A program made the translations under genes and the position numbers. A stretch of 64,000 nt of DNA from an uncultured Bacilli bacterium (GTDB lineage Bacteria > Bacillota_I > Bacilli_A > RF39 > UBA660): assembly GCA_949505625.1 (NCBI GenBank), contig CATBQD010000005.1, positions 3,046 to 67,045 of the forward strand, in the 5' to 3' direction. A model generated the notes under the pieces. The model worked only from the letters and a program-made list of their open reading frames with translations, was not told where the DNA came from and made no database searches. Below, one piece after another: positions 6,526 through 46,886 of the stretch; within the stretch, counting starts at the first letter, position 1; each line of letters starts with the position of its first letter.

Positions 6526-6527
6526 TT

Positions 6528-21994: not shown

Positions 21995-22071
21995 TGGTAG
22001 CGACGGGGAGATTCGAACTCTCGACCTACTGGGTATGAACCAGTTGCTCTAGCCAACTGAGCTACATCGCC
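21995..22071 (-). tRNA. tRNA-Met (CAU), elongator type
   Basis: GGCGATG-TA-GCTCAGTTGGCTAGAGC-A-ACTGG-TTCATAC-CCAGT-AGGTC-GAGAGTTCGAATCTCCC-CGTCGCT-ACCA; close to the B. subtilis elongator tRNA-Met. Confidence 0.85.
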
Positions 22072-25220: not shown

Positions 25221-25298
25221 TAATTTTCAAACTTATTATTGTTTTATCAAAAATTTTATTTATTTTTATTTTGTGATATGATAAATATAGGTGATTTT

Positions 25299-25634
25299 AT
25301 GATAAATAATATTGGAATTGATATAATAGAAAATGAAAGAATTGAAAAACATATATCAAGTGAATTTATAAATATGGTTCTCACTCAAAATGAAAAAATC
25401 TTATATTTCTCTAAAATTGGACATAAGAAAATTGAATTTTTATGTGGAAGATTTGCTGCTAAAGAAGCAATTATAAAAGCTGTTAATCATTTGGAAAATC
25501 CTCATTTTTTAGATATTGAAATTTTATCACAAAAAAATGGCGCTCCAATCGCCACTTTTAAAAATTATAAACTAATAGTATCAATTGCCCATGAAAAACA
25601 TTATACAATTGCGCAAGCTATTCTTTTAAACTAG
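25299..25634 (+). CDS. acpS: holo-[acyl-carrier-protein] synthase
   Basis: MINNIGIDIIENERI … GRFAAKEA; the ORF-finder start at 25239 is probably too early. Confidence 0.8.
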   Translation: MINNIGIDIIENERIEKHISSEFINMVLTQNEKILYFSKIGHKKIEFLCGRFAAKEAIIKAVNHLENPHFLDIEILSQKNGAPIATFKNYKLIVSIAHEKHYTIAQAILLN

Positions 25635-25638: not shown

Positions 25639-26559
25639 TTAATTGACTAGTTTATTTTTTATAATTTCATAAATATGTTTTGCATCTAATCCATTCATCT
25701 CTAATAATTGTTTATGTGTTCCATAACCAGTTGCAAAACAATCTTCAAGTCCTATTTTTATCAATTTTGTTGACAAGTTATTTTCGGCAATGATATCAGC
25801 AATACTACTTCCAACTCCGCCAATTTTATTATGTTCTTCTACTGAAAAAATAACATGATTCTTTTTGCATTCTGCTATAACAGATTGTTGATCAAATGGT
25901 TTGATAGTTGAAACATTAACAACTTCTATTTCAATTCCTTCTTCTTTTAATTTATGAATTGCTTCTAACACTTCACTTATAATGCTTCCTGTTACAAAGA
26001 CAGCTGCTCTATTTCCGGTTTTAATTATATTGTTTTTTCCAAGTTCAAAAGAAGCCTCACCATCATAAATTTCGATTTCATTACTCATTCCCATCCGAAT
26101 ATAAACTGGCCCTTTGATTTGATATGCTGCATTTACACAACATTCTAACTCCTTTGGAGAACAAGGAGACAAAATAGTTAAATTTGGAATTGCTTTTAAG
26201 GCTGCAATATCTTCTGTTGTGTGATGTGTAGAACCGAGTGTTGACCAAGAAAGTCCACAACCCATTCCAACCAGTTTTACATTTTGGTTTTGAAGACACA
26301 CATCATTTCTAATAAATTCATAAGAACGATAAGCAAGAAAGGCACTAGTAGTATATACGAACGGGGTCTTACCACAACTAGCTAAACCAGCTGCTGCTCC
26401 GATTTTATTATTTTCGCTAATACCAAAATTAATAACTTGATCAGGAAATTCCCTAGCAATCATTTCATCATAGTCTGTTCCACTATCAGATAAACAGGAA
26501 ATCACATTTTTATCACTTTTTAATAATTTATATAATGAATTTACATAACTTTTCTGCAT
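25639..26559 (-). CDS. transketolase, C-terminal (pyrimidine-binding) subunit
   Basis: typical two-gene split tkt; overlaps the N-terminal subunit gene by 19 nt. Confidence 0.9.
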   Translation of the reverse strand: MQKSYVNSLYKLLKSDKNVISCLSDSGTDYDEMIAREFPDQVINFGISENNKIGAAAGLASCGKTPFVYTTSAFLAYRSYEFIRNDVCLQNQNVKLVGMGCGLSWSTLGSTHHTTEDIAALKAIPNLTILSPCSPKELECCVNAAYQIKGPVYIRMGMSNEIEIYDGEASFELGKNNIIKTGNRAAVFVTGSIISEVLEAIHKLKEEGIEIEVVNVSTIKPFDQQSVIAECKKNHVIFSVEEHNKIGGVGSSIADIIAENNLSTKLIKIGLEDCFATGYGTHKQLLEMNGLDAKHIYEIIKNKLVN

Positions 26560-27374
26560 GCTGTAATTTCCTCCTCACTAATGCCTAATTCTGCCATAAA
26601 TGTCTTTAGTTCTCTTTTGTTAGGAAGTCTCCAATGCCATCTTGGATCATTCTCTATAATTGATACACCTTTTCCTTTTATTGTATTTGCTAAGATTACA
26701 AGTGGTCTATCTGTTTCGTTTCCTTTTAAAAATACTTGATCTAATGCATCTACATCATGCCCATCCACTTCTTCTACTACCCATCCAAATGCCTCAAAGC
26801 GTTCTTTCCAAGAATGAATTCCCATTACATTTTCTATTGAGCCCATTTTTTGGATTTTATTACAATCTACAATCGCAATTAGATTATTTAGATGTTGATG
26901 TGCTGCGAACATAACCGCTTCCCATATTGTTCCTTCTTCGCATTCCCCATCACCTAATAATACGTATATTTTTTCTTTTTTTTGATCAATCTTTTTTGCC
27001 AAGGCCATTCCTACTCCGAGCGATAATCCATGACCTAAAGAACCTGTAGTAGCTTCAATGCCTGGAATATTTGGTATACAAGGTTCTCCGCCTAATACGC
27101 TTCCTGGCTTGCAAAATGAGTTTAAAAAGTTCAAATCAAAATATCCAACATAATAAAGCATTGTATAAAGTGCTAAACTACCATGACCTTTACTTAATAT
27201 AAGACGATCACGATTCTCTAAATTTGGTTTTCTCGAATCATAATTTAAGTTTTGGTGTACATATAAGCTATACAAAATTTCAACGATTGAAAAGGCTGAA
27301 GCAATATGCGCTATATTAACAGAATAACCTGTTAAAAATATTTGTTTTCGTAATTTTCTCAATTCTTGTTCCAT
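26541..27374 (-). CDS. transketolase, N-terminal (TPP-binding) subunit
   Basis: GHGSLALY, GSLGHGLSLGVGMA, GDGECEEG. Confidence 0.9.
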   Translation of the reverse strand: MEQELRKLRKQIFLTGYSVNIAHIASAFSIVEILYSLYVHQNLNYDSRKPNLENRDRLILSKGHGSLALYTMLYYVGYFDLNFLNSFCKPGSVLGGEPCIPNIPGIEATTGSLGHGLSLGVGMALAKKIDQKKEKIYVLLGDGECEEGTIWEAVMFAAHQHLNNLIAIVDCNKIQKMGSIENVMGIHSWKERFEAFGWVVEEVDGHDVDALDQVFLKGNETDRPLVILANTIKGKGVSIIENDPRWHWRLPNKRELKTFMAELGISEEEITACRKVM

Positions 27375-27383: not shown

Positions 27384-28229
27384 CTATCCAAATAATGTGA
27401 TTGTTTCTGAATCAAGCCCTGAACCACCTAGATATGGCATTTCATTTAACAATTTCATATCTTCGCTTGATATCTCAAAATCAAATACATTTAAATTATT
27501 TTTCATTCGTTCCAAGTTTTTACTTTTAGGAAGAGGCAAAACTCCATTCTGTAAACACCATTTTATACAAAGCTGTGCTATAGTAATTTGATATTTATTT
27601 GCGATCTCTTCTAATTCTTTAATTTTTAACATTTTCCCTGAACCAAGTGGACTCCACGCTTCTACTAAAATTCCTTTGTCCTCACAATATTTTCTAATTT
27701 CTTCCTGATTTTGTCCTATATGCATTTCTACTTGGTTTACCATTGGTATAATTGTAGCACTTTTCAGTAACTCTTCTAATTGATTTACTTTAAAATTACA
27801 AACACCTATTGCTTTCACAAGTCCTTCTTGATACAAATATTCCATTGCTTTCCAAGTTTCTTCATTAATTTTTTCCCAGTCCTTGTGAACAGCTTTCGAT
27901 GCTGGCCAATGAATCAAATACAAATCTAAATATTCACAATCTAGATTTTCTATTGTTTTTTTACACGCTTTTATAGTACTTTCATATCCACGATCTTCAT
28001 TCCATAATTTTCCACTTATAAAAATTTCTTTTCTAGAAATTCCAGATTTTTTTAGACCTGCACCAATCATTTGTTCATTTCCATATGCAAAAGCTGTATC
28101 AAATAGACGATACCCACACTTTACTGCATTCTCAATAATCTCAATTGTTTCTTCTTTATTCTTTAGTCTCCAAGTTCCATATCCTATCAAAGGAATTCTT
28201 TGACTATTTGACAGTTCATAATAATCCAT
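27384..28229 (-). CDS. aldo/keto reductase
   Basis: YRLFDTAFAYGNE, LIHWP. Confidence 0.85.
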   Translation of the reverse strand: MDYYELSNSQRIPLIGYGTWRLKNKEETIEIIENAVKCGYRLFDTAFAYGNEQMIGAGLKKSGISRKEIFISGKLWNEDRGYESTIKACKKTIENLDCEYLDLYLIHWPASKAVHKDWEKINEETWKAMEYLYQEGLVKAIGVCNFKVNQLEELLKSATIIPMVNQVEMHIGQNQEEIRKYCEDKGILVEAWSPLGSGKMLKIKELEEIANKYQITIAQLCIKWCLQNGVLPLPKSKNLERMKNNLNVFDFEISSEDMKLLNEMPYLGGSGLDSETITLFG

Positions 28230-29353
28230 TATTCTTCTCCATTCATTATCTTAGTAATTGTTTCTTTTGTTAAATCTACTTGATCATTCCAATTTGGTAA
28301 TAATCTGTTCCAAGAATCATATTTTTTATCATTTCTTCTATCAGGTAAATTATAGTGTTCTTTTAAATATTGAGTTAAAAAATCAGTATATTTATCTGCT
28401 CCAAATATATTTACATGATTTTCATTATAAAAATCAGTATCAAAATTTAATTGCATTTCTTTATTATAGTCATTTGCATCTAAGAAATCAAAGCCTGCTT
28501 CTTTTACTTTTCTTTCTACGAAATTAAAATTCTCTTTATGAGCTTCTGTTTCTTCATAAGGTGAAACAATAAATAAATATTTATGATTTGTTGTTTTCAA
28601 AAATGTCAAAAGCTCATCTAATATTTTTACTGTATCTTCTTCCATTGGAGTTACTTTATCTGTTTTAAATTCATATTCTACAATTGAATCTACTTTCGGC
28701 ACAAAGTAGAACCCTTTAAGCGGATTTTCGTATAAATGAAGCATTTTCTTTACTGCTGCACGATAATCAACCCCTGCTAAACTTCGATGATATTTTATAA
28801 TATCAAAATGATAAGACAATGTATCTTCTTTCAATATTTTTGGCACATATTTTTCAATAAATTCTGCTTTTTCTAATGAAAATGGGGTGCCTGTAAGAAA
28901 GTTACGATAAGCTACTTCTGTTGGCGGCTGATCTTTATCCCTGTATTGAAAAGCTCTGGCATCTATTATAATAATTTCTGGATTTTGATACTTTAATACC
29001 TCTTTCACTAAATAAATATAAGCTTCTGCTTGTATTGTATTAGCTCCAAAATTATAAGAGGCAATTCCTTCCTTCTCATAAGAACGTAGGGGTTCCCAAT
29101 AGACAAAATTGGCACTTCCTCCAATATATACCATATCCAATGAATTCTTTTTTTCTCCATAAAATCCTGCAATATTATCTAAATCTACAGAAGAGGGCTT
29201 CAAAATATATGTCAGTGTTGTAAATATAATCATGAATATGATAGCAAATGTAACAATTTTAAAAATTGGAACAATATGTTTTCTTATATTATTCATATTA
29301 AAAACCTCCATAAATAAAATCGCTTGCATTATATCCTGGACCATACGCTCCAT
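28229..29353 (-). CDS. DltD-like / SGNH-type accessory protein of the MBOAT acylation system (membrane-anchored)
   Basis: N-terminal TM, position directly downstream of the MBOAT gene as in dltB-dltD; GGS and ENHVN (DHHW-like) segments; the true start probably lies downstream of the 56-nt overlap. Confidence 0.4.
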   Translation of the reverse strand: MERMVQDIMQAILFMEVFNMNNIRKHIVPIFKIVTFAIIFMIIFTTLTYILKPSSVDLDNIAGFYGEKKNSLDMVYIGGSANFVYWEPLRSYEKEGIASYNFGANTIQAEAYIYLVKEVLKYQNPEIIIIDARAFQYRDKDQPPTEVAYRNFLTGTPFSLEKAEFIEKYVPKILKEDTLSYHFDIIKYHRSLAGVDYRAAVKKMLHLYENPLKGFYFVPKVDSIVEYEFKTDKVTPMEEDTVKILDELLTFLKTTNHKYLFIVSPYEETEAHKENFNFVERKVKEAGFDFLDANDYNKEMQLNFDTDFYNENHVNIFGADKYTDFLTQYLKEHYNLPDRRNDKKYDSWNRLLPNWNDQVDLTKETITKIMNGEE

Positions 29354-30815
29354 ATATCAAAATTAAAGAGATTATGATAAATAATGTGATCCATCGAAAC
29401 CATAAGTTTTGCTTTGAAAACCAATCTAAAACATTTATATTTTTATATTTTAAATAATCCACAACTATTACAATAAAACTTGCGAATAATATAATTGCTG
29501 GTAATTGTGGAAGCTCGTATTGCAATCCAGCACGTGGCAATTTAAAAATGTTTTTAATAATTATTAAGCTAGACCCTAAATTCGGAGCACAGGCAAATAA
29601 CCAAATAAAACACATTAATAAGAATGTTCTAAATGACTGAAATAAACGAAAACTAAAACAATCAGTTGTCATTTGCAATTTTTTTGTAATATAATGAATC
29701 TTTTCTTCAAATATTTCGCCCATTGTTAAATAAATCCAAGGAAGAATTCCAGCTGCAAAAATATATTTATAAGAAGCTCCATGCCACAATCCAATTAAAA
29801 ACCATAATATAAAAATTGATAATAATGTCGGAATTCTCTTTCCAATCTTTTTCCCAAATTTATTTTTACACTTTTTACCTAATTTTTGAAAAAAGGAAGA
29901 TTTTAATAATGGATACATAATATAGTCCTTTGCCCAGACTCCTAGGGATATATGCCATCTTCTCCAAAATTCAGATAAATTTTTGGAAAAGAATGGACTT
30001 TCAAAGTTCTCTATCAGCGTAATTCCATACATTTTAGAAGCTCCATTTACAATATCCATACATCCAGAAAAATCTGCATATATTTGTACAGCATATAACA
30101 TTACAGCAATAATAATATAGTACCCAGTGAAATCATTATATTGAGAAAAAACTTGTCTTACAAAAGGAGCTAATAAATCCGCAATCACTAATTTTTTCAT
30201 CAAACCATACATAATTCGATAGAACCCTTGAAATAAATTATTCCAGTCAAAATTTTTTGGTTCAAAAAACTCTTTCTTCATATCATTGTATCTTACAAAT
30301 GGTCCAGAAATCATAATTGGATAATAACTTGCAAATAATGCGTACTTTAATATATTTTTTTGTGGCTCATAGGCGCCCCTATAAACATCAATTACATACC
30401 CAGTTAAAGATAATGTATAATATGAAAGTCCTAATGGAGCTAATAAAGATAGTGTTCCAAAATGAAAATTCATATGAAATAAATTTCCGAATGCATTTAA
30501 AGTAATTGGAAAAATATTAATATATTTTAACACACATAAAATTGATAAAATTGAAAACAAAGTTACAAATAACGTTAATTTCTTTTTCTTTTCTGTTCTA
30601 CACCTATTGTATAAATAATTTGTACCAATATAAGTTGTTAAAATCCCAAATAATAAATACAACAACAATTTCCACTCACATGATAATAAAAAAAACAAAA
30701 TACTTGCAATTAGTAAAATTCCCCATCTATATTTTTTAGGGCAGACATAATAGCAAATAACTGTTATTAATAAAAATATTAAAAACGAAAATGACACAAT
30801 TGACATCTCTCTCAC
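29298..30815 (-). CDS. MBOAT-family membrane O-acyltransferase (DltB/AlgI-like)
   Basis: WRRWHISLGVW and LWHGASYKYI (conserved His) motifs; 505 aa polytopic. Confidence 0.85.
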   Translation of the reverse strand: MREMSIVSFSFLIFLLITVICYYVCPKKYRWGILLIASILFFLLSCEWKLLLYLLFGILTTYIGTNYLYNRCRTEKKKKLTLFVTLFSILSILCVLKYINIFPITLNAFGNLFHMNFHFGTLSLLAPLGLSYYTLSLTGYVIDVYRGAYEPQKNILKYALFASYYPIMISGPFVRYNDMKKEFFEPKNFDWNNLFQGFYRIMYGLMKKLVIADLLAPFVRQVFSQYNDFTGYYIIIAVMLYAVQIYADFSGCMDIVNGASKMYGITLIENFESPFFSKNLSEFWRRWHISLGVWAKDYIMYPLLKSSFFQKLGKKCKNKFGKKIGKRIPTLLSIFILWFLIGLWHGASYKYIFAAGILPWIYLTMGEIFEEKIHYITKKLQMTTDCFSFRLFQSFRTFLLMCFIWLFACAPNLGSSLIIIKNIFKLPRAGLQYELPQLPAIILFASFIVIVVDYLKYKNINVLDWFSKQNLWFRWITLFIIISLILIYGAYGPGYNASDFIYGGF

Positions 30816-30819
30816 TCCA

Positions 30820-31239
30820 TTATTCTAAAAATCCAATTTTCATAATTCCTCTAGAAACCTTTTCTCCAGAATTATCTTTAATGATAAATTTAACTACAAT
30901 TCTAGAAAAACGATCATCCTTTTCTAGTACCTTTCCGATTATAGTTAAAGGGCATTTAGATAAAAAAACTGGTTTTACAAAATTTATTTCTACACTATGA
31001 ATTAAACTTTTCTCTCCTGGCAAATAAACTCCAGCCAAAGTTGAAAGTGCTGAAGCTGTTAACAACCCATATACTACTTTTTCAGAATAGCCTTTTTCTT
31101 TTGCAAATTCTAAATCATTATGTAATGGATTAATATCATTAGTAATCATAAGGAATTGTTTCATTTTTGTTTCATCAAGTTCAAAAACAAAACTTTCCTC
31201 ATGACCAATTTCTAATTCTTTAAATTTAAAGTGATTCAT
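30820..31239 (-). CDS. MaoC-like hot-dog fold dehydratase/thioesterase
   Basis: 139 aa; NDINPLHND motif. Confidence 0.7.
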   Translation of the reverse strand: MNHFKFKELEIGHEESFVFELDETKMKQFLMITNDINPLHNDLEFAKEKGYSEKVVYGLLTASALSTLAGVYLPGEKSLIHSVEINFVKPVFLSKCPLTIIGKVLEKDDRFSRIVVKFIIKDNSGEKVSRGIMKIGFLE

Positions 31240-31475
31240 TGTCTTTCTAATATAATGTCAACCATTTCACCAACGTTTTTCATAGAAGTTACTTCACTCA
31301 TATTAAATTTTATTCCAAAACGGTTTTCAATCGCCACAACTAAATTAATATGTTCTAAACTATCCCAGTCTTCTATATCGTCTGCTGTTGTTTCATCAGT
31401 AACATGAATACTTTCATCATCAAATACTTCCTCAAATACCTCATCTAATGCTTTAAAAATTTCTTCTCTTGTCAT
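31236..31475 (-). CDS. acyl/peptidyl carrier protein (DltC-like)
   Basis: 79 aa, DSLEHINLV phosphopantetheine-attachment Ser. Confidence 0.75.
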   Translation of the reverse strand: MTREEIFKALDEVFEEVFDDESIHVTDETTADDIEDWDSLEHINLVVAIENRFGIKFNMSEVTSMKNVGEMVDIILERQ

Positions 31476-31477
31476 AA

Positions 31478-33259
31478 TTATTCCTCCACCTTTATAAATT
31501 TATTTTTCTTTTCATAAGTTTCATTAATTTCAAATTTCCAGATAGCATTGCCTTCTGCATCTTCACTAATTTTATCAAATCCTTGCAATCCATAAAACTC
31601 TTTTACCATACTGTTTTTAGCAGTTGGATAATAATAACCATATATTTCTTCAATTCCACGCTTTTTACATTGTTCTACCAAGGAATCCATCATTGCATAT
31701 TCCATATCTCTTTTTAAAACTCGGCAACTCATAATCCATAAGTCAATGTCCAAACGCTTTTTATCTTGCTTTCCAATTACAACAGATACAACTCCATTAT
31801 CCCCAAATTTATCTTCTAGTTTTCCATATAAAGTTATATGTAATTGATCTTGAGCAGTCTCTTCTATTTCTGCTTGAGTATAACGTTTTGTTGTCAAATT
31901 AAATTGATTACTTTTATTCGTTAATTGAGCAATTCTAGCCATATAAACAGGTGTAAACCGCCCAATCTCTGCCTCCATATTGAGAGATTTTAAATAATCA
32001 TCATAATTTGTGAATGATTTTTGTAACTGATTTCTTTTTGCATTTTCTTTATACATTTCGGTTTTATTGAAATCATCTTTTGAAAAATTCGTAACTTCAA
32101 AAAATCCTGAGTGATCTAACATTTCAATATAGCGATATGGAATTTCCATATTTGGGGTTGATACCTCTGGAAGCTCCTGATTGATAATGGCACGCTCTGC
32201 TGGATTATCATCTACAAAAACCAAACTATCAGTTCCTATATTTAATTCTTGAGCAATTTCTTTGAAATTATTGGATTTGGGATTCCAATTTGCTTTTATA
32301 ACAATAAAATCTTCTGGCTTTAATATAGAATCAATATGCCTTAGACCTGCTATGGCATTACTTTCTTCATTCTTACTATTAATATTCAAAATAATTCCCA
32401 TTTTCTTATGCTCTAAAATATATTTTTGAAAATCTGTATAAACTTGGCCTTCTGATGTTTCTTCTCCTAACATCAGATTTTCTACACCATCATCTCCTAC
32501 AATTCCCCCCCATAATGTATTATCTAAATCTAATACAAAACCTTTTTTATTTTTTCCTAATATTGCTTTTATAATATTTGCAACTTGAAAAGATAAACTT
32601 GGTATTGCAGGCACTGCTACTGCATATTTATACATATACCAATAAAATGGGTCTGCCCATTTATCTAATCCATACAAACTAGATTGGTAATTAATATCAT
32701 TTATAAAAAAATTTTGTTTTGTTTCTGCATATTCCGCAAATTTCATATTTAATTTTGTTATAAAATTGATTTTTCCATGGATATCTGTAGCATCTTTATT
32801 TCCAAATAATCGATATGTTGGATAATCAAAATTATTTTGAATAATGGAGCAGTGATAAGTTTGAAATAACTTCTCCCATATTGCTTCATAGCGTTCATAT
32901 TCACTTTCTAATACAGCATTCACTTCTGCTTCTGTATCTCCTAATTCTGGATAATGAATAATATTTTTATTTGTTGTATGAATAAATATAATATCAGGTT
33001 TAAATGTTTCTAATTCTTGATTTGGAAACATTGCATCTTCAAAATATTTATTATATTCTGATTCATAAAAAGAGGCTTTTATTCCATAATTTAATAAAAA
33101 TAATTCTAATATTAACTTAATATCACTTGTAGTAGATCCACCTAAAATAGCAATATTTTTTGTAATAAATTGCTTATTGCTTGCTAGTAATTCTTTCTTT
33201 AGAGATTTTTTCTTTTTTAAAATATAATCACTATCAAAGGGATATTCCAACTCTTTCAT
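31478..33259 (-). CDS. FkbH-like HAD-IIIC family protein with N- and C-terminal extensions
   Basis: VLDLDNTLWGGIVGDDG (HAD motif I, IIIC type), INSKNEESN, VFVDDNPAE. Confidence 0.65.
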   Translation of the reverse strand: MKELEYPFDSDYILKKKKSLKKELLASNKQFITKNIAILGGSTTSDIKLILELFLLNYGIKASFYESEYNKYFEDAMFPNQELETFKPDIIFIHTTNKNIIHYPELGDTEAEVNAVLESEYERYEAIWEKLFQTYHCSIIQNNFDYPTYRLFGNKDATDIHGKINFITKLNMKFAEYAETKQNFFINDINYQSSLYGLDKWADPFYWYMYKYAVAVPAIPSLSFQVANIIKAILGKNKKGFVLDLDNTLWGGIVGDDGVENLMLGEETSEGQVYTDFQKYILEHKKMGIILNINSKNEESNAIAGLRHIDSILKPEDFIVIKANWNPKSNNFKEIAQELNIGTDSLVFVDDNPAERAIINQELPEVSTPNMEIPYRYIEMLDHSGFFEVTNFSKDDFNKTEMYKENAKRNQLQKSFTNYDDYLKSLNMEAEIGRFTPVYMARIAQLTNKSNQFNLTTKRYTQAEIEETAQDQLHITLYGKLEDKFGDNGVVSVVIGKQDKKRLDIDLWIMSCRVLKRDMEYAMMDSLVEQCKKRGIEEIYGYYYPTAKNSMVKEFYGLQGFDKISEDAEGNAIWKFEINETYEKKNKFIKVEE

Positions 33260-33365
33260 ATTCCACCTTCTACTTTCATATCCAAAAACATTATAACACA
33301 GAATGTGGCTATTGGCCTATATATTTTAACGTTTTTTTCTTAGAAAATAGATACAGGTGGTATTT

Positions 33366-33608: not shown

Positions 33609-33630
33609 AATATTCTTTTTCTCATAATAC

Positions 33631-33656
33631 AAAAAAGCATTTATTAATGCTTTTTT
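33631..33656. terminator. bidirectional intrinsic terminator
   Basis: AAAAAAGCATTTATTAATGCTTTTTT. Confidence 0.6.
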
Positions 33657-34737: not shown

Positions 34738-35724
34738 CTAAAATTTATATTTTTTATATAATTTCAAGTAAACTTGACTATTTGCTTTTAACAATACTTT
34801 CTTTATTGCTTTTTTGAAATTGTAACAATAAATATCAGAGCTATTTAAATTACTTTTAATCTCTTCTAATTTCTGCTTTAAATCAGTATCATTTAAGAAT
34901 GTTAACTTCGATAACATTGCCTCTAAGCTATAACTTCTTAGAAGTTTTCCTTTTATACTATCTCCTTTAATCTCTTTCATATGAATACAATAAAGGAAAT
35001 ACATATCATCTACTCTCTTTTTCATTTTCTCATATTGTGTCTCTGCCATAATAGAGCCCTCTCGCTCTACATAATTATATCCTATATATGGAAGACAACT
35101 AATTGTTTCGGCTTTATATAAAATAATTGGAATTAGTCCATAATCTTCATGAATTCTTTTTGGAGCAAACTCAAATTTATTTTTTTTATAAAAAGAAGCT
35201 TTATATACATATCCCCAAGGTACTTCCAGTGCTCTTTTTTCCATAATTCTTTTTAAAAGTTCAACATCATCATTGCATTCTTCTACAAAAACAGTTTGAA
35301 TAACAGTTCCATCAGATTTTACATCTTGACTATTAATTCTTATTACATCAGGTGCTCCTTTTTCTAAAATATGTGCTGATAATTTTTCTAATAAATATGG
35401 ATCTAAATAGTCATCAGAATCCACAAATAAAATATATTCTCCGTTAACATATTTTACTCCTTCATTTCGTGCTGATGCAACTCCACCGTTTTCTTTTTTT
35501 ATATATTTAATCAACTGTGGATATTGTTCTTGAAATGCTAATATTATTTTTTCACTATTATCTGGGCTTCCATCATTAACAATAATAATTTCATATTTTT
35601 CTTTTATATTTTTCTGATTTACTAAAGATGATAAACATTTTTCTAAATAATCATAAGTGTTATAAACTGGGACAACAATACTAAATTTAACCATTTCTTT
35701 TATCCTCTCTATTAAGATTTGCAA
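34738..35724 (-). CDS. glycosyltransferase family 2
   Basis: FSIVVPVYNTYDYLEKCLSSLVNQ, DSDD. Confidence 0.85.
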   Translation of the reverse strand: MQILIERIKEMVKFSIVVPVYNTYDYLEKCLSSLVNQKNIKEKYEIIIVNDGSPDNSEKIILAFQEQYPQLIKYIKKENGGVASARNEGVKYVNGEYILFVDSDDYLDPYLLEKLSAHILEKGAPDVIRINSQDVKSDGTVIQTVFVEECNDDVELLKRIMEKRALEVPWGYVYKASFYKKNKFEFAPKRIHEDYGLIPIILYKAETISCLPYIGYNYVEREGSIMAETQYEKMKKRVDDMYFLYCIHMKEIKGDSIKGKLLRSYSLEAMLSKLTFLNDTDLKQKLEEIKSNLNSSDIYCYNFKKAIKKVLLKANSQVYLKLYKKYKF

Positions 35725-38083
35725 CTATTTGCTTATTATATATTTCATCTTTGATTTCGCTTGACTCTTCCCCATTGTCAACTTCATTTACATATTTATT
35801 TTCAATTTTCACTTTTTTCGTTTCTTTTCTTAAAAACCATTCATATTCCAAATCAATATGTCCTAAATCAATCGCTTGATATCCTTTTTGATATAAATCA
35901 TAAACTAAAACTTTAGCAGTTGGTCCTAGAGATATTAATATCAAATATTTCTTACTATACTTGCAAACTTCTTCTAATATTTCTTGATATTTTTCATAGG
36001 CATTTTGAGTTGGACAAAGAATTCTTTTTAAGCTTTTCACTCCATCGAATAAGTCATTTCCAACTCCTAACCTTGAATATTCACCTTCAACTAAAATGAC
36101 ATCTCTATTTTTATAGATTTTTTTTATTTTGTCAAAAATATAATCACAATTTTCTTTTTCTTTATACCTCAAATACGGTCTTGATAAAAATGCATTATAA
36201 TAATTTCCATTACAATATAAATTCCAATTCTTGCTAGTTTTTAATAAGCTAATAGACCAAAATATCTTCTCTTCTTTTACATATTGATTTAGTCCATTAA
36301 ATATTTCTGGTACAGCAATCAATAATCGTTCATCTGATTTCAGCCTTAAAATTTCTTCCAATTTCGTTCCTAATTCTTGATTATAGGTTTGAAACTTCAA
36401 GGATTTTCCATTAATAATATCTATTTCTCCATCTCCATATCTTACAATAGATGCTTTTTTACTAATGATATCATCTATTGTTTGATCAATACTGTAGACA
36501 TTAATATTTTTATTTTTGACACGTAATACATAATATAACGCAGATATATAATAAAGAATCTTTCTTTTTATTTTAAATACAAATTTATTATTAGAGAATC
36601 TTGCTACTACACCTCGGAAATCTTCATAAAATAAATATAAAAATATAAATAAGAAAATGGAAACGGCAAAAAAAACAATAATTGTTACTAAAAACCATTG
36701 AACCAGATTAGTTATATTGCCATATATATTAAGAAAATAAATCATAGAAATCAAACCACCACTTATAAATAACGAAGATACAGTCATTACAAGAAAATAA
36801 ATCGAATTATGCCCAAATTCATTAAAAGCAATTTTAGCTTTTATTGGTAGCAACATAATAGTACTTGTGATTGCAGTTGCTAACAAAATTCCAAAAATCC
36901 CGAGCCATCTAATAAAAAGTAATGACAATACAATATTACTAATTGCTTGCACTAAACTGAGCCATTTTATTTTCTTATAATATCCTTTTACTTCTACAAT
37001 AACATGTAAAGATTTTAATATTACATTTAGCCATAAAATAAACCCAAACAAAATACAAATTTCAATGCTAAAATAATAGCTTTCTTTTATAAATATACTC
37101 ACGAAAGAAGCAGCAGATACACTATATGTCACTGTGCATATCAAAGCGACAAAATTCATAACTAATATAAATTGTTTAAAAATTCTATATCCTTCTTCTT
37201 TGGGAACATTTTTATTATTAACAACAGCACCTAAGGAGCCTTTTACTCCTGTTACAAAGTTAAGCAAAAATAAATGAATATAGTTATTAATAAGATTATA
37301 GATACTATAAGTAGATGTATCTTTTAATCCCATTTGATTGGCAATAATAATAGAATCCGTTTTTTCATTTACAATTTCAGAAATATTATTGACAACTATA
37401 TCTTTTGCAGATTTTGCAACCGTCCGATCTCTTCCTTTATATTTTTTTAAATAAGGATATTTTTTCTTAGTTATTTTTATTAGGAAGTAGGACCCAACCA
37501 AATTAGCTATTACACTCAACAATATTACCAAAATTAAATTTACATGGTTAATAATTAAAATAAGTTCAATTACTTTAAATATAATTTGTTGAGTAGTTTT
37601 GACTAAATTTATAATATAAATGTTCTCATTTACAATAAGTAAATTTCTATATGGTAGTCCATATAAATAATCTGCTAAGAAATCTATAGCATAAAATATC
37701 ATAATAACAATAATATAATAAATTGGAACACTATTATTTTTAATAAAGAAAGGTAATACAATAGAAATTAGAATTCCCATTATGAAAATAAACATTCCGC
37801 TTTTAAAATACAAATGCCTGCTTTCATTAAATACTTCTGTAATTTTTTTCTCGTCTTTTTCTTGAAAATATTTATATAGTTTGACATTAGTAGCAGCTCC
37901 AAAACCTAATTCTGCCAATGTTAAATATGCATATATTTGAGTAATTAATTGAACAATTCCATTTAAATCATCACCATAAACATCTATAAAAAATTTAAAT
38001 TTTAAGAAGCCTATAATTGTGATGATTATAGAAGGAACTATAGAAGTTATAATATTTAACATACTACGCTTTGTCTTTTTCAT
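35687..38083 (-). CDS. Wzx-like polysaccharide flippase (MOP superfamily) fused to a ~300-aa C-terminal soluble domain (RYGDGE motif; possibly a GT-D/DUF1792-like glycosyltransferase)
   Basis: ~12-14 TM helices in the first ~480 aa; C-terminal IVRYGDGEIDI. Confidence 0.6.
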   Translation of the reverse strand: MKKTKRSMLNIITSIVPSIIITIIGFLKFKFFIDVYGDDLNGIVQLITQIYAYLTLAELGFGAATNVKLYKYFQEKDEKKITEVFNESRHLYFKSGMFIFIMGILISIVLPFFIKNNSVPIYYIIVIMIFYAIDFLADYLYGLPYRNLLIVNENIYIINLVKTTQQIIFKVIELILIINHVNLILVILLSVIANLVGSYFLIKITKKKYPYLKKYKGRDRTVAKSAKDIVVNNISEIVNEKTDSIIIANQMGLKDTSTYSIYNLINNYIHLFLLNFVTGVKGSLGAVVNNKNVPKEEGYRIFKQFILVMNFVALICTVTYSVSAASFVSIFIKESYYFSIEICILFGFILWLNVILKSLHVIVEVKGYYKKIKWLSLVQAISNIVLSLLFIRWLGIFGILLATAITSTIMLLPIKAKIAFNEFGHNSIYFLVMTVSSLFISGGLISMIYFLNIYGNITNLVQWFLVTIIVFFAVSIFLFIFLYLFYEDFRGVVARFSNNKFVFKIKRKILYYISALYYVLRVKNKNINVYSIDQTIDDIISKKASIVRYGDGEIDIINGKSLKFQTYNQELGTKLEEILRLKSDERLLIAVPEIFNGLNQYVKEEKIFWSISLLKTSKNWNLYCNGNYYNAFLSRPYLRYKEKENCDYIFDKIKKIYKNRDVILVEGEYSRLGVGNDLFDGVKSLKRILCPTQNAYEKYQEILEEVCKYSKKYLILISLGPTAKVLVYDLYQKGYQAIDLGHIDLEYEWFLRKETKKVKIENKYVNEVDNGEESSEIKDEIYNKQIVANLNREDKRNG

Positions 38084-40644: not shown

Positions 40645-41250
40645 TTATTTTTTAGGATTGTAAAACAGTGATATCACTTTCGAAAATTCAAATAAAATAA
40701 TATTACTTTTGTTCACTGCAAAGCCTTTTCCCATTGCTTTCCCACCTATTGTTAGTGCTGCAATTAATGCAGTTACTATCAAGCTGACTAACAATGTATC
40801 TAAATTTAAGGAGTTTGATATAGTAATTGATAAAATAGCGCCTGTGGAACCCGATATGATTCCACAAATGTCTCCTATTACATCATTGCAAAAAGAGGAA
40901 ACCTTATCTGCACTTTTTTTAAATTTTACAGCTACTTTAGCACCTCTTACTTTTCTAGCAGCCATTGAATGAAAAGGAATTTCATCGGCAGCCGTTACTG
41001 CTACTCCCACCATATCAAATAAAATTCCTATTCCTATGAATAAAATTAATATAATAATTCCTATCCAAAGATTCACTTTAGGCATAACCGTTTCAGAAAG
41101 TGACGAAAATACAATGGACAATGTAAAAGCAATTATCGATATTTTCAAAATCCAATTATAATCAACCAGTTTTTTTTCCTTTTTATTTTTTTTGTTTTTA
41201 TTTAATTCATCAATATATTTTCCCATTATACACCTCATAAAAATATACAA
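40645..41250 (-). CDS. small 4-TM membrane protein with DxxxD motif (OapA-like candidate)
   Basis: four hydrophobic helices, NDVIGDICG (DxxxD); directly downstream, on the same strand, of the GC-rich non-coding region. Confidence 0.4.
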   Translation of the reverse strand: MYIFMRCIMGKYIDELNKNKKNKKEKKLVDYNWILKISIIAFTLSIVFSSLSETVMPKVNLWIGIIILILFIGIGILFDMVGVAVTAADEIPFHSMAARKVRGAKVAVKFKKSADKVSSFCNDVIGDICGIISGSTGAILSITISNSLNLDTLLVSLIVTALIAALTIGGKAMGKGFAVNKSNIILFEFSKVISLFYNPKK

Positions 41251-41289
41251 AAAAAATGGCTATTTATATAGTAAACTTTACGTCTTAAG

Positions 41290-41900
41290 GTCAAGTAGGA
41301 TTTCCCTTACTTCAAACTCTTTCGTTACCAAAAGAGGGGTTCCCCATTATAGAAGTAAATATATCGTCACCGAATATATGACTTGATTGCCACTGAGTAC
41401 GCACTGCAATCCTATATAAATAGACACTCTAGGAGATTTCCTCGACAACTCTGTTTATTATTAGTTCCTTTTTGCAAGTATTGTTTCATATTGCAATCAT
41501 TTTAGTTGGTTGGCCAATCAACTAAAAGTCGTTCAATAATCCCCAAATACTCACTCAGGACAAGCTACACTACTCGTAACTTATCATCACATAGTAGGTT
41601 CAATCCTAAGTCGTCATTTCTCCATCAACTTAACGTGTATAGGGAAATAACAAGATTAGGTCTCCAAGATAGATGGGTCAGATCCTGTATGCCATTACAG
41701 TTGCCCAGCTATCCATACCTCCCAGCACTCACCCCAAACTGGGCGTAAGAAGCAAGCACCAGAAGTTTCACAGATATGCTCTTTAGTGACTTTTTAGGGC
41801 CACCTTCATAATAAACGAAATTGACTAGAATAATGTGCCATTTCAATTTACATTTCAACATTCTACCATATTTAAAATAGAATGTCAAATTGTTCAATCA
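41290..41900 (-). ncRNA. candidate large structured ncRNA (OLE-RNA-like, ~610 nt); strand inferred from the downstream gene
   Basis: ~640 nt without protein-like ORFs, local GC ~42-45% against ~27% background, many local inverted repeats; only S/R-rich junk ORFs. Confidence 0.35.
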
Positions 41901-44915: not shown

Positions 44916-46886
44916 ATGAATGAAAATGAAAAATTAAAAGAAAAATTAGATTTATTAAGCGCTTTAAAGGAAGATGAAGAAAACACAAAAACAATCAAAA
45001 AAGAAAATAAATCTCTAAAGAAAAAAGAAACTACAGAAATAAAAGAGAAAAAATTAGATGCTTCTAAAAAATGCATAAAGCAATCGCATCAGAAACCGCG
45101 AACTTTACTTACAATCATTTCTTTTATCGCACTTGTATCTAGTTTAAGTTACTTAATATATACAATTGTAAAATCAACAGACCAAGTAAATCAACCATAT
45201 TTGATTATCACAAGTGCTTGCCTATTTATAATCAGTTCTTTTATGGTATTAACGGGTTTTACATCAAACAAAAAAATGCAAAAGAGACTGGAGATATTTG
45301 GCATTATTTTAATTACTTTATATACAAGTTTTCAGTTTCTGGTTACTTCCAACATTCTTACATTACCAACTTTAAAAACGGTTGGAGACTTTAGTAATGT
45401 AAGTATCAATGAAGTTGTAAAATGGGCTAATAAAAATAAAATAACCCTAGAGCAAACATATGAATATAGCGACTCTATAGAAAGTGATCATGTTATTAGT
45501 CAAAATATTCCAGCTAATACATTGATAAAAGAAATTAAATCTTTAGAAGTTGTTGTTTCTAATGGGCCAAATTATGAATCTATTGTTAGTATCCCTAACA
45601 TGATTGGCTGGAATGTAGATGATGTTGTTTCAAAAATTAAAGAATTAAAACTGAACAATGTAAATATAGAATATCAATTTAATGATGTAATCGAAAAAGA
45701 TATTGCATTTGAGCAAAGCAAATCAGGAGAAGTTAGACGAAACGAAGAAATCAATATTACATTTTCATTAGGAAATGAAGCCAATTTGAAACCAGTTAAT
45801 CTTAAAGATTTAATAGATTTAGAAGAATTCGATGCAATTTTATGGTTAAAAAGAAATGGTATTAAATATGAGATTAGCTATGAATTTAGTAATGATATCA
45901 AAGCAGGTAATATTATTTCTACTACCCCAAACAGTGGAACTTTAATCGATCAAAAAGAAACAACTGTTCAAATTATTATTTCAAAAGGTCCAAAAATCAT
46001 TGCTCCTAATTTAATGAAAATGTCATTAGAAGAAATCACAGAATGGGCAATAAAAAATAAACTAGTTATTATTTATGAAAGTGAATACAATAGTGAAATA
46101 AAAGCAGGAGGTATTATTCGGGTAAGTGTAAAAGAAGGAGATACTTTAGAAGAAAATACTAGAATCAATATCATTACTTCTAAAGGTACCTTAAAAATGA
46201 TTACAATAGCAGATGGTGATATTACAGCACTCCGTAATTTCGCCAATGAAAACAATTTAACATTAAGTGAAGAATCTGAATTTAGTGATACAGTTGAAAA
46301 AGGAAAATTTATTAGCGTTTCTAAAAAAGCAGGAGAAGAAATTAACCCAGGAGAAGAATTTAAAGTCGTTATATCTTTAGGTGCTTCAATAGAATTACCG
46401 AACTTCATTGGAATGAATGCAAATAAAGCAGCCTCTACTTGTAAAGATTTAGGAATCACATGCAAAATATCCTATGTATATAGTAATAAAACAAAAGGAA
46501 CTGTATTTAATCAAAGTATGAATGCAGGTTCAAAAGTAATTGGTGATACAACAATCGTTTTAACTGTCAGTAATGGCCCAAAACCTTCAAGTAATGGTTC
46601 TAATTCAAATAACAATCAATCAGGAAATGGAAATTCTGGATCTACTAATCCACCTACTACTCCTACTTGTACAAGTTATACATTATATTTAGGTGCTGGG
46701 AATACAGTACAACAGACCCAATCAATTATTCAACAACAAAATCCATATGGCAAATTCAACTTTGTTACAATTCCAGATCCTGGTTATGGAACAACTGGAT
46801 CATTAAGGCGTGATATGCTAACAACATATCAAGGAACAACACATACTTCATGTGAAACAATTACAATTTATATTATCAGTAAATAA
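44916..46886 (+). CDS. membrane-anchored protein with multiple PASTA-like repeat domains and Ser/Asn/Thr-rich C-terminal region
   Basis: charged N-terminus, one TM, ~6 repeats of a ~70-aa PASTA-like unit (…NMIGWNVDDVVSKIKELKL…). Confidence 0.5.
   Translation: MNENEKLKEKLDLLSALKEDEENTKTIKKENKSLKKKETTEIKEKKLDASKKCIKQSHQKPRTLLTIISFIALVSSLSYLIYTIVKSTDQVNQPYLIITSACLFIISSFMVLTGFTSNKKMQKRLEIFGIILITLYTSFQFLVTSNILTLPTLKTVGDFSNVSINEVVKWANKNKITLEQTYEYSDSIESDHVISQNIPANTLIKEIKSLEVVVSNGPNYESIVSIPNMIGWNVDDVVSKIKELKLNNVNIEYQFNDVIEKDIAFEQSKSGEVRRNEEINITFSLGNEANLKPVNLKDLIDLEEFDAILWLKRNGIKYEISYEFSNDIKAGNIISTTPNSGTLIDQKETTVQIIISKGPKIIAPNLMKMSLEEITEWAIKNKLVIIYESEYNSEIKAGGIIRVSVKEGDTLEENTRINIITSKGTLKMITIADGDITALRNFANENNLTLSEESEFSDTVEKGKFISVSKKAGEEINPGEEFKVVISLGASIELPNFIGMNANKAASTCKDLGITCKISYVYSNKTKGTVFNQSMNAGSKVIGDTTIVLTVSNGPKPSSNGSNSNNNQSGNGNSGSTNPPTTPTCTSYTLYLGAGNTVQQTQSIIQQQNPYGKFNFVTIPDPGYGTTGSLRRDMLTTYQGTTHTSCETITIYIISK

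Follow-up and report, generated by a model that had tools for sequence, protein, structure and literature searches.

Carrier-protein-fed acylation by an MBOAT and an SGNH partner is characterised only for the D-alanylation of teichoic acids. The window analysed here, a stretch of 64,000 nucleotides from an uncultured Bacilli bacterium, holds a dlt-like gene cluster with an FkbH-type loader, which raises the question of what such a cluster would transfer and onto what. A preliminary description listed five consecutive minus-strand reading frames, ending at 28229, for the FkbH-type protein, a carrier protein, a MaoC-type dehydratase, an MBOAT and a DltD-like protein. All five were recovered with the same coordinates and lengths, as were the motifs DLDNTLWGG, DSLEH and LWHGASY. 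The boundary had to be moved, since by synteny three further genes of the same strand belong to the unit: an aldo-keto reductase (AKR, 27384-28229) and the N-terminal (26541-27374) and C-terminal (25639-26559) halves of a transketolase. The result is an eight-gene operon on the minus strand, extending from 33259 to 25639. No earlier description of this operon, as a characterised system or otherwise, was found in open-access papers and preprints.

The genes of the operon are closely packed or overlap, and no terminator-like sites were found within it by a sequence scan. A promoter-like extended -10 element (TGtTATAAT, 33290-33298, minus strand) lies about 30 nt 5′ of the FkbH start codon, and a putative ribosome-binding site of the FkbH gene, GAAGGTGGA, is located at 33262-33270. 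Both were read from the sequence, and the promoter is a prediction, a consensus scan being uninformative in such AT-rich DNA. Past the upstream GT4 gene an AT-rich hairpin is followed by a T-run (around 33625-33655), which suggests that the operon is a transcription unit separate from this gene.

The first gene (31478-33259, minus strand) encodes a protein of 593 aa with an FkbH_N domain, a HAD-IIIC phosphatase domain and a C-terminal region containing Cys512. It scores 290.5 bits against TIGR01686, well over the cut-off of 146.65, as well as 64.7 bits against TIGR01681 and 48.5 bits against Pfam FkbH_N; the nearest solved structure is BF1531 (3slr, E = 3e-52). The DxDxT motif (D244, D246, T248), and with it the HAD catalytic Asp pair, is kept in 43 of 44 orthologs, while S295, K296, D350, D351 and C512 are kept in all 44. 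The family match and the conserved catalytic residues bear out the view that an FkbH-type loader occupies the slot of the Dlt adenylase. Glycerate loading has been reported for FkbH domains (PMC10143770). Like FkbH, OzmB, Tmn16 and the FkbH domain of AerB, the protein is a TIGR01686 member with intact DxDxT and Cys and an adjoining discrete ACP. Unlike the loaders of PKS and NRPS pathways, it is accompanied in the operon by no PKS, NRPS or FabH-like condensing enzyme and by none of the FkbK/FkbI/FkbG-type methoxymalonyl-ACP enzymes, and its output would feed an MBOAT-SGNH exporter, not an assembly line.

The adjoining gene (31236-31475, minus strand) encodes an acyl carrier protein of 79 aa with the phosphopantetheine-attachment residue Ser39 within DSLEH. 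All 45 orthologs keep D38 and S39. The protein matches PP-binding with 26 bits (cut-off 20.8); the DltC model gives 19.4 bits where 68 are required. Among solved structures the putative ACP 2lml is nearest. By these scores the carrier protein is of the generic ACP type rather than a DltC.

The MBOAT (505 aa, 29298-30815, minus strand) matches Pfam MBOAT with 56.4 bits (cut-off 27), and 64 of 65 orthologs share its catalytic His345. Against the DltB equivalog TIGR04091 the protein reaches 130.9 bits, under the cut-off of 375. Of the solved structures only those of DltB (6bug, 8jem) are related to it, and the alignments span just residues 30-378. At its C-terminus it carries the hexapeptide FIYGGF (codons 29301-29318). 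Of 66 MBOAT sequences, 65 have FxYxxF at the very C-terminus. In PatA and DltX this motif serves as the acyl-Tyr shuttle; it is fused to the MBOAT in acetyl-CoA-using systems and separate, as DltX, in Dlt (PMC12148441). No DltX-like ORF is present at the locus.

The MBOAT gene is followed by that of a membrane-anchored protein with an SGNH fold (374 aa, 28229-29353, minus strand; candidate catalytic residues Ser80 and His313), a previously unnamed family which we call X374. Translation probably starts at Met20 (29296), giving 355 aa, because most orthologs and the gene calls of locus L001 begin there. X374 matches nothing in Pfam or NCBIfam and, by sequence, no solved structure, so that its likeness to DltD was assessed by structure only. 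The AlphaFold2 model (pLDDT 92.7) consists of an N-terminal transmembrane helix and an SGNH fold matching DltD, PatB and OatA-C. DltD is among the top structural matches, although Foldseek rates this match as weak (TM 0.36) and the two share no similarity in sequence. The candidate Ser and His are invariant among orthologs. The term DltD-like thus fits the fold only.

The proposed parallel to dltABCD holds for the carrier-fed MBOAT with an SGNH partner. In both systems a small dedicated carrier stands beside the MBOAT and a membrane-anchored SGNH protein, and the logic would be the same: loading in the cytoplasm, passage via the MBOAT and transfer outside through the SGNH serine. The parallel with Dlt (DltA, DltC, DltB, DltX, DltD) fails for the loader, which is an adenylase there, for the carrier (19 bits against 68), for the fused shuttle in place of DltX, for the DltB score (131 against 375), for X374, which has no DltD Pfam match, and for the dehydratase, the two transketolase subunits and the reductase, which have no Dlt counterparts. 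The fused motif is shared with PatA and AlgI. Nevertheless, the acetyl-CoA-dependent systems PatA/PatB (peptidoglycan), AlgI/AlgJ/AlgX (alginate) and WssH/WssI (cellulose) are reported to use acyl-CoA and no carrier protein (PMC12148441), whereas ACP, loader and tailoring enzymes are integral here. Because FxYxxF is fused to the MBOAT C-terminus, the system, as its sequences read, is a hybrid with a carrier-protein donor as in Dlt and a fused-shuttle MBOAT as in PatA. From gene neighbourhood alone we infer that the ACP is the acyl donor to the MBOAT; the ACP gene lies immediately 5′ of the MBOAT gene in several arrangements.

Two tailoring enzymes have intact catalytic motifs. The MaoC-type single hot-dog (R)-hydratase/dehydratase (139 aa, 30820-31239, minus strand), whose gene overlaps that of the ACP by 4 bp, matches MaoC_dehydratas with 40.2 bits (cut-off 27), in agreement with the earlier assignment. 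Its nearest solved structures are HTD2 (3-hydroxyacyl-thioester dehydratase 2, 3ir3) and PhaJ-type hydratases, and all 43 orthologs retain the hydratase-2 motif residues D35 and H40. The AKR (281 aa, minus strand; Aldo_ket_red 206.7 bits), whose gene overlaps that of X374 by 1 bp, has the tetrad D44-Y49-K74-H107, kept in 34 of 34 orthologs, and is closest among solved structures to B. subtilis YvgN (265 bits), a methylglyoxal/glyoxal reductase. It would provide the reduction step of the module.

The two transketolase-like subunits form a ThDP enzyme with an altered substrate site. The N-terminal subunit (277 aa, minus strand) scores 148.8 bits against Transketolase_N and 262 bits against the NCBIfam transketolase model, under the cut-off of 488; the C-terminal subunit (306 aa, minus strand) scores 98.5 bits against Transket_pyr and 84.8 bits against Transketolase_C. 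Residue numbers of these two subunits refer to E. coli TktA. The ThDP, Mg and catalytic residues are retained: H26 and H66 in 41, N185 and H261 in 42 and D155 in 37 of 42 N-half orthologs, and E411 and H473 in 42 of 42 C-half orthologs. In contrast, the four phosphate-binding positions, H100 and D469 are lost. Glu replaces H100 in 40 of 42 orthologs and Gln or Asn replaces R358 in 39 of 42; the S385 loop is missing; and Gly, Leu and Met take the places of H461, D469 and R520 in 41, 41 and 40 of 42, respectively. The changes in the C-terminal subunit thus affect both phosphate-binding and stereo-selecting residues. In E. coli transketolase R358, S385, H461, R520, H100 and D469 bind phosphate and sugar hydroxyls, and in siAniP the loss of these residues goes with the use of non-phosphorylated substrates (PMC11387542). 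Since all these positions are lost, the split transketolase is, by all appearances, not a housekeeping enzyme. The pattern E100, G461, L469, M520 is mentioned in none of the open-access papers examined. As with NapB/NapD and siAniP, the transketolase homolog is split into two subunits and encoded among biosynthetic genes that include one for a carrier protein. Unlike siAniP, it retains the catalytic set His26, His261 and His473; unlike NapB/NapD, it has no lipoyl-E2 partner here; and unlike these specialised enzymes, its nearest solved relative is a genuine split transketolase (6yak for the N-half, 6yaj for the C-half). Rif15a/b are further specialised transketolase-like ThDP enzymes of secondary metabolism.

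The operon is common in gut Firmicutes. A survey of the five-gene set (FkbH, ACP, MaoC, MBOAT, X374) yielded 36 loci, in nine gene orders, all of which also carry both transketolase halves and are termed full loci. Nine orders in different genomes point to functional coupling rather than inherited adjacency, and on the strength of this co-occurrence the AKR and the split transketolase belong to the module. The AKR is found in 29 of the 36 full loci, and an SDR lies within or directly beside the module in six of the seven others, which shows non-orthologous replacement in the reductase role. Four further loci carry only FkbH, ACP, MBOAT and X374. In sister loci X374-type pairs occur with an AMP-binding enzyme and a small PP-binding ORF in place of FkbH and ACP, supporting the swap of one loader for another. 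According to these four-gene and adenylase/carrier variants, the MBOAT-SGNH half accepts different carrier-loading modules.

Taken as a whole, the best explanation, which we consider fairly probable, is ACP-dependent MBOAT-SGNH acylation of an extracytoplasmic envelope polymer, with a small acyl group that would derive from sugar metabolism and be assembled on the carrier. We are confident of the architecture of loader, carrier, tailoring enzymes and MBOAT-SGNH export. A phosphopantetheinyl transferase would convert the carrier to holo-ACP. By family membership, Cys512 of FkbH would be acylated from 1,3-bisphosphoglycerate, the HAD domain of FkbH would strip the 3-phosphate and the glyceryl unit would pass to the phosphopantetheine on Ser39 of the ACP. 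MaoC may then dehydrate 2,3-dihydroxypropanoyl-ACP via the enolpyruvoyl to the pyruvoyl form. The split transketolase, no longer binding sugar phosphates, could perform ThDP chemistry on a carrier-bound, non-phosphorylated substrate; its likeliest reaction, speculatively, would be to add a C2 acyl-anion equivalent onto the activated ketone, a type of acceptor that transketolases rarely use. The resulting carbonyl would be reduced by the AKR, or by the SDR in other lineages. There is a precedent in the two-component transketolases NapB/NapD, which supply a carrier protein with a C2 unit (PMC7570522). Both the order in which the tailoring enzymes act and the reaction of the transketolase are conjectural, and this specific C2-extension chemistry is doubtful. 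Finally, the ACP would hand the completed acyl group to the MBOAT on the cytoplasmic side, His345 would pass it to the Tyr of the MBOAT's own FIYGGF, and, by analogy with Dlt and PatAB, Ser80 of X374 would accept it and esterify the wall polymer. The minimal four-gene relatives would transfer plain glyceryl.

The preliminary description had envisaged an envelope ester other than D-alanyl, and the carrier-fed MBOAT with its SGNH partner agrees with this. With AKR and split transketolase as integral parts of the module, however, a plain glyceryl or lactyl group is unlikely, and a more elaborate one is probably transferred. A simple D-lactyl (or glyceryl) group, one of the options named at the outset, would arise if MaoC converted glyceryl-ACP to pyruvoyl-ACP and the AKR this to lactyl-ACP, with the transketolase in a peripheral or supply role. 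Such a route has reportedly been proposed for the bryostatin synthase BryA, which has a DH-KR-FkbH-ACP loading module. A dehydratase and a reductase beside FkbH-ACP suffice for it, both keep their catalytic residues, and YvgN is the closest relative of the AKR. We nevertheless consider it unlikely, as the transketolase halves are present whatever the gene order while the AKR is missing from seven loci, and a conserved remodelling that removes sugar-phosphate binding is unexpected for a housekeeping or supply enzyme.

Directly upstream in the window a TagA/MnaA-type wall-polymer locus was found, as described before, but this adjacency is not conserved: glycan-assembly homologs occur within the 10-kb flanks of only 11 of the 36 full loci, and in one locus (L076) the module stands amid housekeeping genes with no glycan genes nearby. 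The latter arrangement, the role of characterised FkbH enzymes in polyketide, tetronate and non-ribosomal peptide pathways and the assignment of aeruginosin-cluster MBOATs to metabolite tailoring would fit a small-molecule or lipid-linked product (a glyceryl-derived butenolide, a tetronate-like compound or an acylated glycolipid), the MBOAT acylating a lipid or metabolite. This is quite improbable in view of the nine module architectures, none of which contains a ketosynthase, FabH-like, condensation or thioesterase gene. Furthermore, a fused FxYxxF together with a membrane-anchored SGNH partner is a signature of bacterial envelope-polymer acylation, variant MBOAT-X374 loci are linked to Bac_transf, GT2 and YfhO genes, and the wall-polymer locus lies next to the operon in the window.

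The transketolase itself could be the loader, charging the ACP with a C2 unit (glycolyl or acetyl) drawn from a keto substrate by a NapB/NapD-like route or by phosphoketolase-like dehydration to acetyl-ThDP, with FkbH supplying a second block or another acyl group. The Nap/Qnc route depends on a lipoyl or E2-like acyltransferase as partner; none was seen in the module, which also has a single ACP. One locus (L044) with transketolase, MaoC, ACP, SDR, MBOAT and X374 has no FkbH within 21 kb, and there are two-component transketolases from which a carrier protein receives a hydroxyethyl unit (PMC7570522). However, of the 37 loci having both transketolase and MaoC, 36 also have FkbH, and the FkbH of L044 may lie elsewhere in the genome; we regard loading by the transketolase as very improbable. 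That MBOAT-X374 is an ordinary acetyl-CoA O-acetyltransferase alongside an unrelated FkbH/ACP/MaoC/AKR/transketolase pathway would accord with the fused-shuttle MBOATs characterised to date, which have acyl-CoA as donor and no carrier protein (PMC12148441), and with four distant MBOAT-X374 pairs (L056, L061, L062, L064) lacking loader or carrier genes nearby, but it is scarcely credible against the co-occurrence in 36 loci and nine orders, the four FkbH-ACP-MBOAT-X374 loci, the ACP gene directly before the MBOAT gene and the independent variants that pair this MBOAT-X374 type with an adenylase and a carrier protein.

Convergent with the end of the operon, an ACPS-type 4′-phosphopantetheinyl transferase is encoded on the plus strand (25239-25634; Pfam ACPS in L001-L003). 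A homolog adjoins the C-terminal transketolase gene in eight of the 36 full loci and in 11 loci overall. It is possibly an accessory that activates the carrier protein, or it may merely be the housekeeping AcpS.

The preliminary description had drawn a five-gene, dlt-like cluster on the minus strand (28229-33259), and the five ORFs read in the window have the positions, lengths and motifs ascribed to them. Nevertheless, the unit is larger. It comprises eight minus-strand genes (33259 to 25639), since an aldo-keto reductase gene (AKR, 27384-28229) and two genes for the N- and C-terminal halves of a split transketolase (TKN, 26541-27374; TKC, 25639-26559) follow directly downstream on the same strand and also belong to it. 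These three genes are separated by gaps of a few bases or overlap. Curated-family profiles supported four of the first five proteins, namely FkbH, the carrier protein (ACP), the MaoC protein and the MBOAT, but not the fifth, a 374-aa protein (28229-29353, minus strand) named X374 here.

A total of 68 loci was taken from reference genomes with the X374 family as anchor, and the ORFs of these loci were searched with the window proteins. FkbH, ACP, MaoC, MBOAT, X374 and both transketolase halves occur together in 36 of the 68 loci (full loci), in nine different gene orders. The commonest were the order of the window (16 loci), TKN-TKC-FkbH-ACP-MaoC-MBOAT-X374 either with or without AKR (8 loci), and FkbH-AKR-TKN-TKC-MaoC-ACP-MBOAT-X374 (7 loci). 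That the gene set persists despite this much shuffling indicates functional coupling. Four loci contain only the minimal set FkbH-ACP-MBOAT-X374, for which glycerate is the predicted ester group. The ACP gene belongs to the module in every full locus (36/36) and every minimal locus (4/4). A convergent gene at the end of the window operon encodes an ACPS-type phosphopantetheinyl transferase (25239-25634), which is also present in 8 of the full loci. An AKR gene is found in 29 of the 36 full loci, and six of the seven loci lacking it have a gene for another reductase (SDR) inside or directly beside the module. Five of these SDR genes stand immediately after X374, the place of the AKR in sister loci, and one lies between ACP and MBOAT. 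This non-orthologous replacement of the AKR identifies reduction as an integral step of the module.

The identical locus was found again on several metagenome contigs and in the MAG GCA_948852825.1. Most hosts of the module belong to uncultured Bacilli (in part labelled 'Tenericutes'), Clostridia and Lachnospiraceae of the gut, and a few are MAGs labelled Saccharibacteria. One cultured host is Lachnospiraceae bacterium 47-T17 (L035). Three of the compared loci (L010, L013, L018), with 50-61% X374 identity, come from MAGs labelled Muribaculaceae (Bacteroidota) and Saccharibacteria/Nanosyncoccus (CPR), which suggests either horizontal transfer into distant lineages or mis-binning. L018 has the whole module, L010 has a split TKN, and L013 is truncated by the contig end. 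Three further loci (L017, L021, L024) carry two paralogous X374 copies inside the module, which could mean two acceptor substrates.

Replacement of the D-alanine-activating adenylase DltA by an FkbH-type loader, as proposed from the first inspection, is borne out by the profile searches: none of the eight operon genes encodes an AMP-binding domain, and the 593-aa protein reaches 290.5 bits with TIGR01686 (cut-off 146.65) and 64.7 bits with the HAD-IIIC model TIGR01681, and also matches Pfam FkbH_N. Among solved structures, the 593-aa protein is closest to BF1531 (3slr, E = 3e-52), an uncharacterised protein of Bacteroides. The HAD aspartate pair, whose loss would have spoken against this assignment, is retained: D244 and D246 are conserved together with T248 in 43 of 44 orthologs, and S295, K296, D350, D351 and Cys512 in all 44. 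Thus the score, HAD motif I (DxDxT) and a conserved, putatively acyl-accepting Cys residue all place the protein in the FkbH family, for which loading of glycerate has been reported (PMC10143770). The carrier protein scores 26 bits with the PP-binding model (cut-off 20.8), and its attachment residue Ser39 is present in 45/45 orthologs. The hot-dog protein matches MaoC_dehydratas (40.2 bits) and carries the hydratase-2 motif NDINPLH with D35 and H40 conserved in 43/43 orthologs; among solved structures, it is closest to HTD2, a 3-hydroxyacyl-thioester dehydratase, and to PhaJ. The AKR (Pfam 206.7 bits) has the catalytic tetrad D44, Y49, K74 and H107 in 34/34 orthologs, and its closest relative is YvgN (265 bits), a methylglyoxal/glyoxal reductase.

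The closest solved relative of the two transketolase subunits is a genuine split transketolase from Carboxydothermus (6yak, E = 6e-58; 6yaj, E = 1e-55). With the NCBIfam transketolase model the subunits reach 262 and 182 bits, both below the cut-off of 488, and their homologs are labelled simply 'transketolase' or are unnamed in the source records. A homolog search with the C-terminal subunit yielded close orthologs only (at least 67% identity) and disclosed no other genomic contexts for this subfamily. We aligned 42 cluster-linked transketolase orthologs with E. coli TktA, the numbering of which is used here. The residues for ThDP/Mg binding and catalysis (H26, H66, D155, N185, H261, E411, H473) are retained in 37-42 of the 42 orthologs. 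In E. coli transketolase the substrate phosphate is bound by R358, S385, H461 and R520, while H26, H100, H261, D469 and H473 form hydrogen bonds to the sugar hydroxyls and D469 selects the stereoisomer (PMC11387542). Within the first set R358 is replaced by Q or N (39/42), H461 by G (41/42) and R520 by M (40/42), and the S385 loop is deleted. Within the second set H100 is replaced by E (40/42) and D469 by L (41/42). Furthermore, F434 is replaced by Thr or Ala in the cluster transketolases. The transketolase-like siAniP lacks these recognition residues and uses non-phosphorylated substrates (PMC11387542), and laboratory evolution at S385, D469 and R520 shifts the E. coli enzyme to non-phosphorylated, non-hydroxylated acceptors (PMC5073344). 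Replacement of the recognition residues, with cofactor and catalytic residues kept, predicts a ThDP-competent catalyst that would no longer recognise sugar phosphates. A housekeeping transketolase is excluded by the co-occurrence with the module together with this remodelling of the active site.

The MBOAT (Pfam MBOAT, 56.4 bits) has the conserved H345 of LWHGASY in 64 of 65 orthologs. It ends in FIYGGF, and FxYxxF stands at the extreme C-terminus of 65 of 66 sequences, the exception being a disrupted gene. In MBOAT-SGNH systems the acyl group passes from the MBOAT to the Tyr of a C-terminal FxYxxF hexapeptide and from there to the SGNH serine; in Dlt this hexapeptide is carried by a separate microprotein, DltX (PMC12148441). 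No plausible DltX-like small ORF with a C-terminal FxYxxF was detected between 25000 and 34000, where the few matches were stop-to-stop stretches of 11-27 residues. The statement that the cluster mirrors dltABCD therefore holds in part. It shares a carrier protein and an MBOAT with Dlt and has a predicted SGNH protein, but the shuttle is fused to the MBOAT, DltX is absent and the DltB and DltC models stay below their cut-offs. The DltB equivalog TIGR04091 scores 130.9 bits for the window MBOAT (cut-off 375). DltB structures are its only solved relatives and align with residues 30-378 of 505, so that the last ~125 residues extend beyond DltB. The carrier is a generic ACP rather than DltC: model NF003464 gives 19.4 bits (cut-off 68), generic ACP models score higher, and the matches to solved structures include a putative ACP as the closest and no DltC. 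PatA/AlgI-type systems, in contrast, use an acyl-CoA donor and no carrier protein (PMC12148441), whereas the module includes an ACP gene. An ACP in the module and FxYxxF fused to the MBOAT together describe a hybrid, which on the donor side would resemble Dlt and in its MBOAT resembles PatA and AlgI.

X374, previously called DltD-like, does not justify this name at the sequence level: searches with Pfam, NCBIfam, phmmer against PDB and a family-profile hmmsearch against PDB yielded no meaningful match, and its homologs are unnamed or listed as 'hypothetical protein'. Structure prediction is what links it to SGNH proteins and DltD. The AlphaFold2 model (pLDDT 92.7) consists of a transmembrane helix followed by an SGNH fold, and we infer that this predicted domain lies outside the membrane. 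A candidate catalytic serine, S80, is conserved in 59/60 orthologs and H313 in 60/60.

More distant X374-type genes always adjoin an MBOAT gene, and several are accompanied by a different loader. Loci L055, L058 and L073 contain an AMP-binding enzyme, a PLP-dependent decarboxylase of the Orn/DAP/Arg type, MBOAT, X374 and a Bac_transf priming sugar transferase. A closer look at L055 (5320-12598) showed a PP-binding-like ORF of 77 aa (19.6 bits, slightly below the cut-off) between the AMP-binding enzyme and the decarboxylase. Such loci are dlt-like and may serve to install an amino-acid-derived group other than D-alanine. In another locus, L036, the MBOAT is accompanied by an AMP-binding enzyme and a PP-binding ORF of 79 aa (24 bits). 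L054 (1-11014) contains, in this order, an AMP-binding enzyme, a Formyl_trans_N protein, MBOAT, two 915-aa YfhO proteins and X374. YfhO is a teichoic-acid glycosylation family, which suggests a teichoic-acid-type acceptor, at least in this branch. The combination of one MBOAT-SGNH type with two unrelated predicted routes of carrier charging is the best available evidence for the carrier as acyl donor. No loader gene lies near the most distant pairs (e.g. in Clostridium butyricum, C. neonatale and Caloramator), whose donor may be acyl-CoA.

Sequence and synteny together establish the module as a set of predicted loader, carrier, dehydratase, ThDP enzyme, reductase, MBOAT with fused Tyr shuttle and membrane-anchored SGNH protein. 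From family knowledge, FkbH would convert 1,3-bisphosphoglycerate to glyceryl-S-ACP, and MaoC would remove water from the 2,3-dihydroxypropanoyl-ACP to give the enol of pyruvoyl-ACP. More speculatively, the rewired transketolase would add a C2 acyl-anion equivalent to the activated ketone of pyruvoyl-ACP, and AKR or SDR might reduce the new carbonyl, giving a branched polyhydroxy C5 acyl-ACP. If the last steps run as in Dlt and PatAB, the MBOAT would then transfer the acyl group to its own C-terminal Tyr, and X374 would take it on Ser80 and esterify an envelope polymer. With low confidence we propose from this scheme a new acyl decoration built on an ACP, in which a C3 unit derived from glycolysis becomes pyruvoyl-ACP, is extended by a ThDP carboligase and reduced, and the branched polyhydroxy C5 group, for example 2-methyl-2,3-dihydroxybutanoyl or 2-methyl-2,3,4-trihydroxybutanoyl, is exported and esterified to wall polymers of many gut Firmicutes. 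As part of the same tentative proposal, the transketolase active site would be rebuilt for a phosphopantetheine-tethered keto-thioester instead of a sugar phosphate.

There are two main alternatives for the chemistry. The transketolase itself may load a C2 unit onto the ACP, for which NapB/NapD provide a precedent (PMC7570522). A hint in this direction comes from L044 (5208-11011), which encodes TKN, TKC, MaoC, ACP, SDR, MBOAT and X374 in a glycosyltransferase-rich locus and has no FkbH gene within 21 kb; here the ACP is loaded either by an enzyme encoded elsewhere or by the transketolase-like enzyme itself. The other alternative is a plain D-lactyl product. If the C5 proposal is true, both the modification of the envelope and the type of reaction would be new, the latter for the transketolase family.

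Acylation of envelope polymers, such as D-alanylation and O-acetylation, governs how far a cell resists antimicrobial peptides and lysozyme, and also governs autolysis, phage adsorption and recognition by the host immune system. Current work on the mechanism (PMC12148441) sets Dlt, which has a carrier protein and DltX as a separate shuttle, apart from all other MBOAT-SGNH systems, in which the shuttle is fused and the donor is an acyl-CoA. The module breaks this division by combining a fused-shuttle MBOAT with a dedicated carrier, interchangeable loaders (FkbH or adenylase) and a tailoring set. For export and transfer it follows the established MBOAT-SGNH mechanism and is of an already known kind. 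New are the donor-supply half (FkbH loader, carrier-bound tailoring and rewired transketolase) and the association of a fused-shuttle MBOAT with a carrier protein. No description of an FkbH-fed or transketolase-containing MBOAT-SGNH system was found in the open-access papers and preprints searched, while subscription journals may hold one; FkbH and MBOAT are named together for the aeruginosin and suomilide clusters, where they act at unrelated steps. From the module, at least one unrecognised ester decoration is to be expected on the surfaces of abundant Bacilli, Clostridia and Lachnospiraceae of the gut, most of them uncultured. Furthermore, a natural transketolase variant predicted to have lost sugar-phosphate binding is of interest for ThDP biocatalysis.

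In the window, the operon follows a Wzy-dependent wall-polymer locus encoding TagA/WecG, UDP-GlcNAc 2-epimerase, an HAD-GtrA fusion, Wzy_C, two GT2 proteins, a GT-D fusion and GT4. The polysaccharide locus noted in the preliminary description is thus present, but the association is not general, since homologs of glycan-assembly genes lie within 10 kb in only 11 of the 36 full loci. In another locus, L076, the module stands alone among genes for an ABC transporter, a DinB-type polymerase and UvrB. A module dedicated to the adjacent polysaccharide locus was therefore rejected, and the acceptor may be a common polymer, e.g. teichoic acid or peptidoglycan. A wall-less host, which the 'Tenericutes' label on related MAGs would suggest, is ruled out by the window genes for TagA/WecG, UDP-GlcNAc 2-epimerase, a PASTA-repeat protein and a glucosaminidase, the last two indicating that the organism has a cell wall.

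The 656-aa PASTA protein (44916-46886) is encoded by the only large plus-strand gene within a long minus-strand run; Pfam (E ≤ 1e-4) gives only six PASTA repeats and reports no kinase or transpeptidase domain. In the 798-aa GT-D protein (35687-38083, minus strand) the glycosyltransferase domain covers residues 546-768 only (290 bits). The hydrophobic N-terminal part of ~540 residues has no Pfam match and could represent a fused membrane or flippase-like domain.

Between the wall-polymer locus and the operon lie an XRE-type HTH gene in divergent orientation and a hairpin followed by a T-run, and a TGnTATAAT element precedes FkbH. The operon thus probably has its own transcript. A scan for consensus promoters and terminators gave no terminators and 71 promoter-like sites where 60 were expected, and is uninformative in DNA of 27% G+C. 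No riboswitch or leader was found ahead of the operon with Rfam. Elsewhere in the window, a full-length OLE (Ornate Large Extremophilic) RNA (41240-41857, minus strand; 419 bits, gathering score 50) lies within the wall-polysaccharide locus and is flanked by the HAD-GtrA gene and an ORF of 201 aa (40645-41250). This ORF has no Pfam match and might encode an OLE-associated protein. A T-box leader (6566-6770, minus strand, 121.7 bits) lies directly upstream of a 559-aa ORF (4888-6567), and two tRNA genes are found at 10694-10764 and 21998-22071.
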